DNA of 32,000 nt from an uncultured archaeon (GTDB lineage Archaea > Asgardarchaeota > Thorarchaeia > Thorarchaeales > Thorarchaeaceae). The stretch lies in assembly GCA_964354495.1 (NCBI GenBank), contig CAYHAA010000014.1, positions 9,361 to 41,360 of the forward strand, written 5' to 3'. The notes under the pieces were generated by a model. That model saw only the letters and a list, made by a program, of their open reading frames with translations. It was not told the DNA's origin and did no database searches. Below are positions 28,765-32,000 of this stretch, piece after piece (position 1 is the stretch's first letter; every line of letters starts with the position of its first letter). The position numbers and the translations under genes are program-made.

Positions 28765-29688
28765 CTGGCCAATCCTGTTTCCATCGCCATGGGTCAGGGC
28801 AGCTCCTGTTGGGGCTGTTTCCAGAGCCTGGTCGATATCCATATGAATCTGGCCACAGTTCTGCCAGCCTTGGATATCAAGTACTGGCAATGTGTCGTGG
28901 ACTACAAGCTCTCAGACCTTGAGAATTATCCCGAAAAATCGATTGCTCTGGGCCTGTTTGAAGGCACTGCTCGGACTGAGGAAGATGTCCATCTTCTGAA
29001 GGTCATGAGAGAAAAGTGCCAGACACTGATTTCCTTTGGGTCTTGCTCATGTTTTGGCGGCATTCCTGGACTTGCCAATTTCTATGACATTGAAGAATGT
29101 CTTGATGTCAAGTTTCGTGAGAATAAGACGGTGACTGGAGGACAGGTTCCATCAGAGAACGTGCCCGGTATCGAACCTGTGGTTCGACCAAACTCAGATA
29201 TCGTTGATTTCGATATATACCTCCCTGGGTGTCCCCCTACTTCGAAACTCATACTCGCTGCAGTGACTGCATTGCTTGAAGGAAAGCCAATCGAGCTGCC
29301 GCCTCATACCGTCTGTCACTACTGTGCTCGCGAGAAGAAAGAGACCCCAATTACTGCCATCAAGCGTCCCTATCAGGGAATAGCCGACCCAGACAGGTGT
29401 CTGCTTGAGCAGGGCTACATTTGCCTTGGCTCAGCGACCTGGGGCCTATGCGAGGGGCAGTGTGTAAACAAAGGAGCGACATGTCGTGGATGCTTTGGGC
29501 CTCCGCCTCCCATAATGCAGGACCACGGAGCGAATTCAATGTCAATGCTAGGCACTTATGCTCCTCTGACACCTGAAGAACTCAAAGAACAAGTGAAGGA
29601 CCCACTTGGACTATTCTATAGATTCACCTATGCAACAAGCCACCTTGGTTCAATACGCATCAAACGTGAGGAGGCGAAGAACAAGTGA
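28765..29688 (+). CDS. mvhG: MvhG/VhuG [NiFe]-hydrogenase small subunit (group 3c)
   Basis: SSCWGC, FEGT, FGSCSCFGGIPGL, LPGCPP, VCHYC, CLLEQGYICLG..C..QC..CRGCFGP. The proposed start is CTG 28765; the first ATG is at 28789. Confidence 0.93.
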   Translation: MANPVSIAMGQGSSCWGCFQSLVDIHMNLATVLPALDIKYWQCVVDYKLSDLENYPEKSIALGLFEGTARTEEDVHLLKVMREKCQTLISFGSCSCFGGIPGLANFYDIEECLDVKFRENKTVTGGQVPSENVPGIEPVVRPNSDIVDFDIYLPGCPPTSKLILAAVTALLEGKPIELPPHTVCHYCAREKKETPITAIKRPYQGIADPDRCLLEQGYICLGSATWGLCEGQCVNKGATCRGCFGPPPPIMQDHGANSMSMLGTYAPLTPEELKEQVKDPLGLFYRFTYATSHLGSIRIKREEAKNK

Positions 29689-31001
29689 CGGATGAGAAGA
29701 CGATTAGAATCGACCCAGTGACCCGACTTGAAGGACATGGCTCACTCACGATCAAGCTTGGCAAAGACGGAAAAGTCAAGGATCTCCAGTTCAATGTCAA
29801 CTCGACGAGATTCTTCGAGAAATTCTTGGAGGGTCGTCCCATGGAGGAGGCTCCGAGAATCGCTCCACGTATCTGTGGTATCTGTCCTATCCCCCATCAC
29901 CTTGCGTCTGTGAAGGCAGTCGAGGCTGCATGGGATGTCACACCACCCCCTGCTGCTGTGAAGATCAGAAGGCTGATGATGGAGGCTAAGCAGCTCTCGA
30001 GCCATGCGATTCACTTCTATGCTCTTGCTGCTCCCGACTTCGTCTTTGGTCCCTTTGCTGATCCAGCAGTAAGAAATGTTGCAGCTGTCTTGAAGTATTT
30101 GCCTAATGTAGCAGTACAAGCCATCAAGCTAATGGAGTTCGGTCAAGAACTCATTAAGACTGTTGGAGCCAAGGCAATCCACCCAACAACAGCCATCCCC
30201 GGTGGTCAACTGACTCCTATGAAGGAGGAGGACCGTGATTACTGGCTTGGCAAAGTTCCTGAGATGCTTGAGAATGTCAATAAGACAGTAGAACTGGCAA
30301 AGACTGTTGTCAACGCCTACATTGACGTTGTGACCAAGATCGCTGTTGTCCCGACATACTACATTGGACTGGCGAACAAAGGCGCTCTGGACATCTATGA
30401 TGGAACAGTTCGTGTCATGGACCCGAAGGGCAAGATTGTCGCTGACTTCGAGCCCAAAGACTACACCAAGTACTACGGAGAGCACGTATCAGAGCATAGC
30501 TATGCAACTCATATCTACTACAAGCCTGCAGGATACCCTGAAGGCATCTGGAGAGCCAACACTCTTGCACGATGCAATGTCGCAGACAAGATGGCAACTC
30601 CCCTTGCTGATACGGCACTGAAGGAGATGAGAGGACTTATCGGAAGACCTTCGCACCACACCTTTGCGTATCACTATGCGCGAATAGTGGAGCTGGTGCA
30701 AGCTGCTGAGTCGATCAAGAAGCTATTGGAAGACCCAGAGATTGTGAGCACCGATGTGAAGCTCTCAGATGTTGAACCGAAGGCCGGTGATGGTGTTGGC
30801 ATTGTAGAGGCTCCACGAGGGACTCTTCTGCATAACTATGTGAGTGATGACAAGGGTATGCTTGTGAAGGCGAACCTTATCGTAGCTACAAACAACAACA
30901 TCGCAGGTATTGAGAAGAGCCTCATGGTGGCTGCAAAGCAGATCTTTGAGGACAAGGCTCACGAGAGTCTGAAACTACCTGACCCAATGGTGAAGACCTA
31001 G
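29685..31001 (+). CDS. vhuA: MvhA/VhuA [NiFe]-hydrogenase large subunit, N-terminal polypeptide lacking the C-terminal L2 motif
   Basis: IDPVTRLEGH, L1 motif RICGICPIPH and VEAPRGTLLH are present. It ends at TAG 30999-31001 with no DPCxxCxxH. GTGA overlap with mvhG. Confidence 0.95.
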   Translation: MTDEKTIRIDPVTRLEGHGSLTIKLGKDGKVKDLQFNVNSTRFFEKFLEGRPMEEAPRIAPRICGICPIPHHLASVKAVEAAWDVTPPPAAVKIRRLMMEAKQLSSHAIHFYALAAPDFVFGPFADPAVRNVAAVLKYLPNVAVQAIKLMEFGQELIKTVGAKAIHPTTAIPGGQLTPMKEEDRDYWLGKVPEMLENVNKTVELAKTVVNAYIDVVTKIAVVPTYYIGLANKGALDIYDGTVRVMDPKGKIVADFEPKDYTKYYGEHVSEHSYATHIYYKPAGYPEGIWRANTLARCNVADKMATPLADTALKEMRGLIGRPSHHTFAYHYARIVELVQAAESIKKLLEDPEIVSTDVKLSDVEPKAGDGVGIVEAPRGTLLHNYVSDDKGMLVKANLIVATNNNIAGIEKSLMVAAKQIFEDKAHESLKLPDPMVKT

Positions 31002-31052
31002 AAAATGACCATACCTCAGGATTATAAAGCGGAGAAGGAAATGTGAAATATA

Positions 31053-31205
31053 GTGTCAGAAGAAATCCCTGAAGGAGTACTGAACCTCCTGGAAATGGTG
31101 GTTCGGTGCTATGACTGCTGACTATCATGCGGCGCTCATCTGGTCGTCGTCGACGATGAGGGTCGCGAGATAGTCAGGAAGGAGCTTGTGACCGGCGGCG
31201 GATGA
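31053..31205 (+). CDS. vhuU: VhuU-like selenoprotein: separate C-terminal peptide of the hydrogenase large subunit (50 aa, Sec at TGA 31119-31121)
   Basis: Translated by hand: MSEEIPEGVLNLLEMVVRCYDC-U-LSCGAHLVVVDDEGREIVRKELVTGGG. It matches the missing L2 motif (NLxEMxxRAYDPCLSCxxH) with TGA at the first Ni-ligand Cys. An alternative in-frame ATG lies at 31005. Confidence 0.92.
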
Positions 31206-31239
31206 AGGCACGGCCCCAAAATCATGGGCCGAGTCTAAC
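31202..31239 (+). promoter_or_regulatory. SECIS-like RNA hairpin (AUGA / 11-bp helix / AAAA loop)
   Basis: ATGA-AGGCACGGCCC-CAAAATCAT-GGGCCGAGTCT-AAC. Ten of 11 positions pair (one G-U, one A.A mismatch) and the apical loop is A-rich. The 3' core reads AA instead of the canonical GA. Confidence 0.65.
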
Positions 31240-31249
31240 ACACCCTGCA

Positions 31250-31291
31250 AAGGTGCGCTGGTCGCACTCCTTCCATCCTTTGTCCTTTTCC
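31250..31291 (+). terminator. Hairpin plus pyrimidine tract, possible terminator of the hdr-mvh operon
   Basis: GTGCG-ctggt-CGCAC (31253-31267) flanked by AAG/CTT, followed by ccatcctttgtccttttcc. Confidence 0.4.
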
Positions 31292-31378
31292 AGAGAGTTC
31301 TCAGCCATTATCCCCTATTTCCGTCTAGATTAATAGTAAGCTCGCGGCTAGATACCGACAGCATCAAGGGTGATAGGA

Positions 31379-32000
31379 TTGGATGCTATCGACAAGCAAC
31401 TCTGGATAGAACTAGGTCGGAATTGCCGGCACTCCTACAGGTATCTAGCTGACAAGATTGGGATTAGTTCAAATGCAGTCATGCAACGTGTTGCGAAGTT
31501 GCTGGAAACCGGTGTCATTCGGAAGTGGTATCTGGCATTCCGTCCTGCAATGATTGATGCCCAGTTCGCCTTCATCGAAGTGAAAACGGATGGAAGCCAA
31601 GACGAAGACGGGCTCCTCAAGACCCTTGGCACCAATCCAATGATCTTTTGTCTTCTTCCCTTAACGACTGGAGACTTTGCCCTGCATGCGTTCTACATAG
31701 GCGCCGCCTCTTTGCTTGAATTGACGTCTTTCATTCGTTCCGTGGATGGCGTCATTGATGTCAAAGTGCATCCGACAACAGCCAATGCTGGGAGGAAGAT
31801 GAAGTTGGGACCATTGCACCTGCGGATCCTTCCATGGCTAGCAAGAGACCCGAGGGCGAGCATCTCTGATATTGCTAGGGATTCAGGGCTCACAGCTCGG
31901 AGAGTCAAAAGGCTGGTCGATGAGCTTGTCGAGAGTGATGCGTTTGACTTCTCTTTCGTCTGGAATCCAAACGCTGGAGAAGGTATGGCGTTTATTTCTA
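31379..32000 (+). CDS. Tandem (double) Lrp/AsnC-family transcriptional regulator, runs off the window edge
   Basis: Translated by hand from TTG 31379, open to the window end. First HTH: DAIDKQLWIELGRNCRHSYRYLADKIGISSNAVMQRVAKLLETGVI. Second HTH: HLRILPWLARDPRASISDIARDSGLTARRVKRLVDELVESD. Confidence 0.88.
   Translation, partial: MDAIDKQLWIELGRNCRHSYRYLADKIGISSNAVMQRVAKLLETGVIRKWYLAFRPAMIDAQFAFIEVKTDGSQDEDGLLKTLGTNPMIFCLLPLTTGDFALHAFYIGAASLLELTSFIRSVDGVIDVKVHPTTANAGRKMKLGPLHLRILPWLARDPRASISDIARDSGLTARRVKRLVDELVESDAFDFSFVWNPNAGEGMAFIS

Follow-up and report, generated by a model that had tools for sequence, protein, structure and literature searches.

The probable Asgard type I SECIS at the vhuU stop codon of a Thorarchaeote, and the predicted RNA folds that surround it

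The short gene vhuU, located near the end of the window (the whole stretch of 32,000 nucleotides analysed here), contains two in-frame UGA codons, and a SECIS-like hairpin begins at the second of them. This locus raises the question of how the first UGA can be decoded as selenocysteine (Sec) while the second one ends the protein, and which RNA structure is responsible for the difference. Here, the gene, the hairpin at its stop codon, the relatives of this hairpin in other Asgard genomes and the structured RNA between and around the two codons are described, and the competing explanations are weighed.

The vhuU gene and the hairpin at its stop codon

Based on the ORF list, an hdrA-mvhD-(small ORF)-vhuG-vhuA operon lies at the window end and is followed by vhuU. 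The features of the gene pair and of the hairpin are as follows:

29685-31001, plus strand: vhuA/mvhA, large subunit of a [NiFe] hydrogenase, without the C-terminal Ni-binding motif (ORF; orthologs)
31053-31205, plus strand: vhuU, a 50-codon selenopeptide gene with a GTG start and the motif CYDC-U-LSCGAH (sequence; orthologs)
31119-31121, plus strand: Sec UGA codon at the Ni-ligand position (sequence; orthologs)
31198-31201, plus strand: GCGG, 5' strand of a short lower stem beside the core, pairing with CUGC at 31245-48 and alternative to a small hairpin at 31242-31254
31202-31205, plus strand: AUGA core of the SECIS, of which 31203-31205 is also the vhuU stop (sequence; orthologous loci)
31206-31236, plus strand: SECIS helix II (31206-16 with 31226-36) and A-rich apical loop (31217-25) (fold; covariation)
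31237-31238, plus strand: 3' core dinucleotide AA (sequence; GA in all sampled Thorarchaeota relatives)

Orthologs of VhuA with 57-91% identity (and one partial match of 98%) were found in Thorarchaeota and other Asgard genomes. The closest of them (78-91%, together with the partial match) are nearly all Candidatus Thorarchaeota, and the more remote ones come from Jord-, Frey-, Hel- and Promethearchaeota. At four loci of relatives (L023, L024, L025, and L028), second vhuA copies of 60-72% identity end at the same position without an adjacent vhuU, so that they supplied no Cys-type vhuU genes as controls; these copies either share the single VhuU or have a small partner encoded elsewhere.

VhuU reads ...RCYDC-U-LSCGAH..., with the first in-frame TGA at 31119-31121 and the second at 31203-31205. 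A TGA occupies the Sec position in 58/58 of the vhuU loci compared below, which were chosen by a motif requiring an in-frame stop there. The GTG start at 31053 aligns with the ATG of the orthologs, and contigs of a relative in public sequencing runs carry an A at 31053, which makes an ATG start; therefore, no second Sec codon has to be assumed at the in-frame TGA that precedes it at 31044-46. The two vhuU UGAs are separated by 28 codons, among them those that follow the CxxH motif. What follows this motif in [NiFe] hydrogenases is normally removed by a maturation protease, and the tail of VhuU may be largely a spacer.

The hairpin at 31198-31248 had been noticed in an initial annotation of the sequence, and its anatomy was confirmed in every element. 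Of the 11 positions of helix II, one is an A.A mismatch and one a G.U, the apical loop CAAAAUCAU at 31217-31225 is 9 nt long, and AAC follows at 31237-39. The AUGA core does coincide with the vhuU stop, whose UGA shares the reading frame of the Sec UGA. The distance between the two, given there as about 83 nt from the Sec codon to the element, was measured as 84 nt from UGA to UGA. Read-through of the stop would indeed add RHGPKIMGRV up to the TAA at 31236-38; a conserved read-through extension was considered and rejected, its length varying from 2 to 99 codons between genomes. The weak lower helix GCGG/CTGC that had been thought possible is paired in 93% of cells of the ortholog alignment (as GCGG/CYGC) with no double-sided covariation, and it fits the consensus [U/C]GG_C[C/U][A/G] published for the lower stem of frhA, the name under which vhuU appears there (Huang et al., 2024; PMC11227280).

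The isolated hairpin folds with -17 kcal/mol, and 8/200 shuffled sequences fold equally well (z = -2.0). Since the z-score is only -2.0, the folding energy is modest evidence, and the case is carried by position and conservation. Searches with general models and descriptors gave the following results. No Rfam SECIS family gave a match, either in the whole window at the gathering score or in 31000-31400 at E <= 10; the Rfam matches obtained (STnc420, mir-200, and sR51) were only at chance level, and no tRNA was found in the window. A descriptor of the GAA_A bulge of euryarchaeal SECIS elements returned 0 matches over 31000-31400, and this candidate type was rejected. A strict descriptor of the form AUGA, stem, A-rich loop and [GA]A gave 8 matches on both strands of the 3.3-Mb genome, one of which is the vhuU site.

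Conservation, Sec machinery and class of the element

Regions downstream of vhuA were taken from the genomes of 30 relatives and from 67 public contigs, and 58 loci with a Sec-type vhuU were obtained. In 57/58 of these Asgard loci the vhuU stop is a UGA within NUGA (AUGA in 53, UUGA in three and GUGA in one), and the Sec UGA and the stop UGA stand 84 nt apart in 46 loci and 96 nt apart in 11. The overlap of stop codon and core and the 84-nt spacing are thus near-universal in the sampled Asgard vhuU genes.

The check for conservation and covariation in orthologous 3' regions that the initial annotation had called for came out in favor of the element. In an alignment of 22 elements, compensatory double changes occur at 8/9 pairs of the upper helix, in which pairing is kept in 89.7% of cells. 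The value for the whole tested structure is 87.6%, as against 29-48% when the partners are slid along each other; the observed covariation score was reached by 0/500 shuffles, a count that is not to be read as a probability because the sequences are related. No variation was seen in this alignment at the AUGA, at the 3' core A or at two of the loop adenines. The conserved stem consists of 9 bp and a flanking A.(U/G) position, closed by an 11-nt loop; the 11th pair (C-G) and the 9-nt loop are particular to the genome of the window. A covariance model was built from 23 orthologous elements and run on the whole genome, where it found two matches only, the vhuU site with 70 bits and an orphan copy on contig C1 with 54 bits.

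These data bear on the simplest reading of the hairpin, namely that it is merely a transcription terminator or a 3'-end stability hairpin with no role in recoding. It does stand at the 3' end of the operon, with a U/C-rich tract within about 30 nt. However, AUGA, [G/A]A and the two loop adenines stay invariant or nearly so while the stem covaries, the element occurs at the stop of Sec-type vhuU across the sampled Asgard classes at a fixed distance (57/58 loci), a separate hairpin with a pyrimidine tract follows downstream, and the sole other match of the covariance model is a relic of a vhuU 3' end. We regard this reading as extremely improbable.

A tight cluster of Sec genes is present on contig C7 (G000:C7:70434-74679) of the genome (3.3 Mb, 47.7% GC). 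It contains an EFsec-like ORF from 70434 onward, SepSecS (71980-73101), tRNA-Sec (73844-73934) and PSTK (73948-74679, minus strand); an AIR-synthase-related gene lies near this cluster. The EFsec-like ORF encodes 488 aa and matches positions 2-273 only of the 581-position bacterial SelB profile, and no match to the bacterial SECIS-binding C-terminus was seen in it with this profile. SelD is a fusion of a NifS-like cysteine desulfurase with SelD, has Cys at the Sec/Cys position and is encoded at G000:C15:38288-39208 (minus strand); four weaker SelD-like matches were set aside as HypE/ThiL/PurM-like proteins without Sec. No SBP2-like protein was found in the genome, and the only L7Ae-domain proteins are encoded by two small ORFs of 125 and 112 aa; L7Ae of this genome maps to C3:170893-171171. 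SBP2 was not found in Loki either (Mariotti et al., 2016; PMC4989117).

The initial annotation had proposed to look for the same fold behind other TGA-containing genes, such as selD, hdrA and vhuD, and no such gene was detected. The HdrA, MvhD and VhuG paralogs found by tblastn in the genome are all Cys-type or ordinary proteins with no selenoprotein among them, and a crude genome scan for a loose SECIS with an upstream TGA returned 41 hairpins but no credible gene in front of any of them. No selenoprotein other than VhuU was detected in the genome by these non-exhaustive scans, and the whole Sec machinery may serve one 50-residue peptide.

SECIS elements of eukaryotic appearance were described in Lokiarchaeota as lokiSECIS, which consists of AUGA, a 9-bp stem and an A-rich loop of 11 nt with a G at its end (Mariotti et al., 2016; PMC4989117; Huang et al., 2024; PMC11227280). 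In VhuU the 3' core is AA, and in VhuU.1 the AUGA is the UGA stop; it was also proposed, in a minimal-distance model, that a UGA too near the SECIS is not recoded (Mariotti et al., 2016; PMC4989117). In a survey of more than 400 Asgard genomes the class was extended to Thorarchaeia, with a type I model of GA_[G/A]A, a 7-15-bp stem and an 8-20-nt loop, with frhA loops of the form G[U/G]AAA in Thorarchaeia and with stop codons that often overlap AUGA (Huang et al., 2024; PMC11227280). In the window, the element stands 3' of vhuU, carries [A/G]UGA and [G/A]A, agrees in the sizes of stem and loop, stays within the two mismatches allowed in the stem, covaries in orthologs, and is accompanied in the genome by tRNA-Sec, EFsec, PSTK, SepSecS and SelD. 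Since every testable defining feature was found, the vhuU element belongs to the published Asgard type I class.

The resemblance to lokiSECIS and the other Asgard type I elements covers AUGA, a stem of about 9-10 bp, an A-rich loop closed by G, [G/A]A, the overlap with the stop, the lower stem CGG_CYG, and an archaeal/eukaryal Sec machinery without SBP2. The element of the window differs in its loop, CC-AAAA as compared with G[U/G]AAA of Thorarchaeia, in the extra C-G pair and in the 9-nt length of the loop. In addition, AA was reported for Loki/Hel and Sif/Borr and not for Thorarchaeia, whereas the window comes from a Thorarchaeote with AA; the AUGA_AA core variant is hereby shown to arise within Thorarchaeia as well. 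With the eukaryotic type I SECIS (Rfam SECIS_1) the element shares an AUGA...GA-type quartet, unpaired apical adenines, the 3' position and a minimal distance between UGA and SECIS, but it has no Rfam match, a shorter helix II, an AA core and no SBP2 homologue to accompany it, and its core overlaps the stop, so that the element is partly coding. The euryarchaeal SECIS of Methanococcales and Methanopyrus likewise lies in the 3' UTR close behind vhuU and serves the same selenoprotein, but it is characterized by a GAA_A bulge, in place of which the window has an AUGA_AA core. The description as a eukaryote-style Asgard SECIS distinct from the methanogen type is supported.

Several features first regarded as peculiar turned out to be known. 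The use of the stop UGA as core was present as described, but as a novelty it was preceded by both earlier studies (PMC4989117, PMC11227280). The idea that proximity to the element explains why one UGA is recoded and the other stops agrees with the minimal-distance model and had already been proposed with it (PMC4989117). Likewise, AA in place of GA is real and sets this element apart from its Thorarchaeota relatives, but AA in VhuU had been published (PMC4989117). The vhuU SECIS, including its overlap with the stop, is therefore of an already published kind and is not new.

Taken together, the element is very probably the Asgard type I ("lokiSECIS") SECIS of the Thorarchaeota vhuU mRNA, serving the UGA at 31119 (probability about 0.87). 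This reading is built on the anatomy, position, conservation, covariation and fixed spacing of the element and on the presence of the Sec machinery; counted against it were the missing Rfam match, the z-score of -2.0, the AA core with the CC-AAAA loop, the duplicated and rearranged locus and the want of an SBP2-like protein in the genome.

The AA core and the copies of the vhuU 3' end

In every Thorarchaeota relative sampled, the core is GA and the loop starts with G[U/C/A/G]AAA, as against AA and CC-AAAA in the window; GAC is also seen in the closest relative found, whose VhuA is 98% identical over the available portion of the gene. The C at the start of the window's loop is the source of the extra C-G pair. 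In run X1, a 154-nt contig spans 31133-31286 and carries the AA allele and the loop with one difference elsewhere, and this run may be the source sample. In X17, an RNA-library run, a contig spans 31133-31224 and carries most of the window-type loop, though not the AA; RNA libraries can contain DNA. Because contigs of these two public runs carry it (X17 without the AA), the window allele is not an assembly slip. Uncovered stretches in X2 and X17 and the contig depths were left out as evidence.

Further copies of this region were observed in the genome and in its relatives. The orphan element (G000:C1:677387-677445, minus strand, outside the window; 54 bits) is of the vhuU type with a GA core, lies about 25 nt past the TAA of a cysteinyl-tRNA synthetase-like gene (cysS), and follows a relic of the C-terminal codons of VhuU (KQYQTSGG*), with no Sec gene close by. 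On contig C14, the vhuU 3' end and UTR (window 31185-31279) recur just beyond the window end, at the window-equivalent positions 32353-32447, as a decayed direct repeat of 72% identity, and the two copies bracket an Lrp/AsnC-like gene. One or two additional copies of the vhuU 3' module lie on the same contig in several relatives, and in one relative (G012) a 1.8-kb insertion is flanked by 26-nt repeats of window 31254-31279, which is the terminator part. A relative in run X4 has G at 31237 and a GAC element after vhuU, and about 4.1 kb downstream of this GA-type SECIS the strain has a stretch identical to window 31200-31279. That the 3' module (small hairpin, terminator hairpin, and CUCCUUCC) might be a generic genome repeat was also considered and was rejected because the module is unique to the vhuU locus.

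Such rearrangements suggest another explanation, that the hairpin of the window is a decayed or weakened SECIS in which the G-to-A and loop changes came with the rearrangement of the locus, and that vhuU is nearing loss or is poorly decoded. The GA core and G[U/C/A/G]AAA loop of every sampled Thorarchaeota relative and the GAC of the closest one would agree with this, as would the arrangement in the X4 strain, with its GAC element and the downstream window-type copy, and the decayed or duplicated copies in this genome and its relatives. However, vhuU retains an intact ORF and the Sec gene cluster is complete and intact, and the machinery would otherwise be useless, VhuU being the only selenoprotein detected. 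The element has also kept its helix, the AAAA run and the G that closes the loop, and AA is the normal state in Loki-type vhuU elements. We consider decay of the element unlikely.

The AA core can also be examined in terms of kink-turn nomenclature. On a reading of the sequence, G.A is allowed at 1b.1n, and 2b.2n is A.A instead of A.G. In one structural study, Kt-23 of Thelohania solenopsae is described as having adenine at 2n, its crystal structure with archaeal L7Ae was solved, and an RNA with adenine at this position still folds into a kink-turn and is bound by archaeal L7Ae (PMC3985660). A at 2n is compatible with a kink-turn and with L7Ae binding, which speaks against decay, and the AA-core variant is plausibly functional.

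Predicted RNA folds between and around the two UGA codons

Predicted structure is not confined to the SECIS. The additional features are as follows:

31118-31177, plus strand: H1, an intra-CDS hairpin of about 60 nt whose basal part pairs the Sec UGA (folding; synonymous recodings)
31177-31197, plus strand: 5' strand of helix I, GGAAGGAG and GUGACCGGCG, in the last vhuU codons (RNAfold MFE and centroid; RNAalifold)
31242-31254, plus strand: small hairpin ACCC/(A/G)GGU, third arm of the predicted junction, mutually exclusive with GCGG/CUGC (97% of cells paired, one compensatory pair)
31256-31274, plus strand: 3' strand of helix I, CGCUGGUCGC and CUCCUUCC, in the 3' UTR, or a local terminator-like hairpin (RNAfold, RNAalifold)
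31268-31290, plus strand: pyrimidine/U-rich tract after the hairpins, a likely transcript end (sequence; conserved in orthologs)

The fold of 31100-31370 has z = -4.1, and the upper part of H1 begins 6 nt past the Sec codon. An upper hairpin starting 6 nt after the codon is the usual geometry of recoding stimulators. The MFE of native H1 is -40.5 kcal/mol, as compared with -17.5 kcal/mol for 300 synonymous recodings drawn with local codon usage (z = -5.9). Such excess stability was found in 19/19 family-level orthologs (z of -3.2 to -5.9) and in most of about 60 Thorarchaeota loci (z of about -1.7 to -6.9, mostly -4 to -6). Within 57 further loci, those of Thorarchaeota mostly have z between -3.5 and -6.9, those of Jord/Freyarchaeia have z of -3.1 to -4.3 and the Loki-/Hel-type genes are mostly above -2. 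In the consensus fold 92% of cells are paired, and at locus L007 a synonymous change in a Cys codon is matched by a change of an Arg to a His codon on the opposite strand. Synonymous differences within H1 disrupt pairing less than a random placement would (89% paired as compared with 84%, in 33/35 sequences), a comparison that is supportive but not a formal test since the sequences are related. Where the spacer is 12 nt longer, the hairpin is retained and is at least as stable, and a Cys-type hydrogenase gene on contig C40 has no H1-like hairpin (z = +1.0).

H1 resembles the eukaryotic SRE (SEPN1) and the bacterial SECIS in being a stable stem-loop directly 3' of the Sec UGA and within the CDS. 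It differs from both in that there is no sequence relation, that H1 pairs the UGA in its base, and that it occurs only in some lineages (Thor, Jord/Frey). H1 could be seen as the primary recoding signal, acting in the manner of a bacterial SECIS, with the 3' hairpin as an accessory or a terminator. It is very stable, is strongly selected against synonymous decay in Thorarchaeota, and lies immediately at the UGA as in bacteria, so that its position agrees with a bacterial SECIS. On the other side, H1 is weak or absent in Loki-/Hel-type vhuU genes, which keep the Sec UGA and the 3' SECIS, its apical loop is variable, unlike that of a bacterial SECIS with its conserved G, and the EFsec-like ORF has no seen match to the SECIS-binding C-terminus of SelB. 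A primary role of H1 is judged highly unlikely.

Downstream of H1, the predicted helix I of 18 bp pairs the last vhuU codons with the 3' UTR, with 95% and 91% of cells paired in its two parts. In the predicted fold it encloses the SECIS and the small hairpin at 31242-31254, giving a three-way junction. The alternative for its 3' strand is a local, terminator-like hairpin (GUGCG at 31253-57 with CGCAC at 31263-67; 88% paired, two compensatory pairs), and the substitutions observed fit both structures. The 3' strand of helix I reads CACCUCCUU in many orthologs and resembles the 3' end of 16S rRNA.

If the element is the type I SECIS of vhuU, its action may be pictured as follows. The putative kink-turn-like AUGA..AA core, the helix of about 10 bp and the A-rich loop would recruit the EFsec/Sec-tRNA(Sec) machinery, probably through a protein of the L7Ae class or some other binding protein. 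The UGA at 31119, 84 nt upstream, would be decoded as Sec while the SECIS is intact, and this Sec would be the Ni ligand of a split [NiFeSe] hydrogenase. With the stop UGA in the A site, the mRNA channel would have opened helix I and would cover the 5' strand of helix II; because the SECIS would then be unfolded, the release factor would win and translation would terminate.

H1 and the long-range helix probably belong to the same recoding module. A more specific proposal, which we put forward tentatively and hold to be possible though doubtful, is that vhuU of Thorarchaeia, and apparently of Jord/Freyarchaeia, contains a composite recoding module made of an SRE-like H1, the 18-bp helix I and a kink-turn SECIS on a three-way junction. 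H1 would pause the ribosome at the first UGA, and translation would then dismantle helix I and the core, so that the second UGA could only terminate. In such a module helix I would adjoin H1, folding would leave no more than one or two nucleotides between the Sec UGA and the SECIS foot, and the last codons would probably encode a cleaved C-terminal extension. No description of H1, the long-range helix and the SECIS copies was found in the literature searched.

The SECIS at the vhuU stop is one more confirmed case of a published class, and it gives a clearer view of how constant the overlap and the spacing are. Compared with the SECIS itself, H1 is the more interesting addition, and together with the junction it matters for the question of how an archaeal or proto-eukaryotic SECIS reaches a nearby UGA without SBP2. 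The module of about 170 nt and its natural variants (GA and AA cores, 84- and 96-nt spacers, with and without H1) are suited to the existing Methanococcus reporter system. If the composite module is real, it would represent an archaeal UGA-proximal stimulator that cooperates with a eukaryote-like SECIS.
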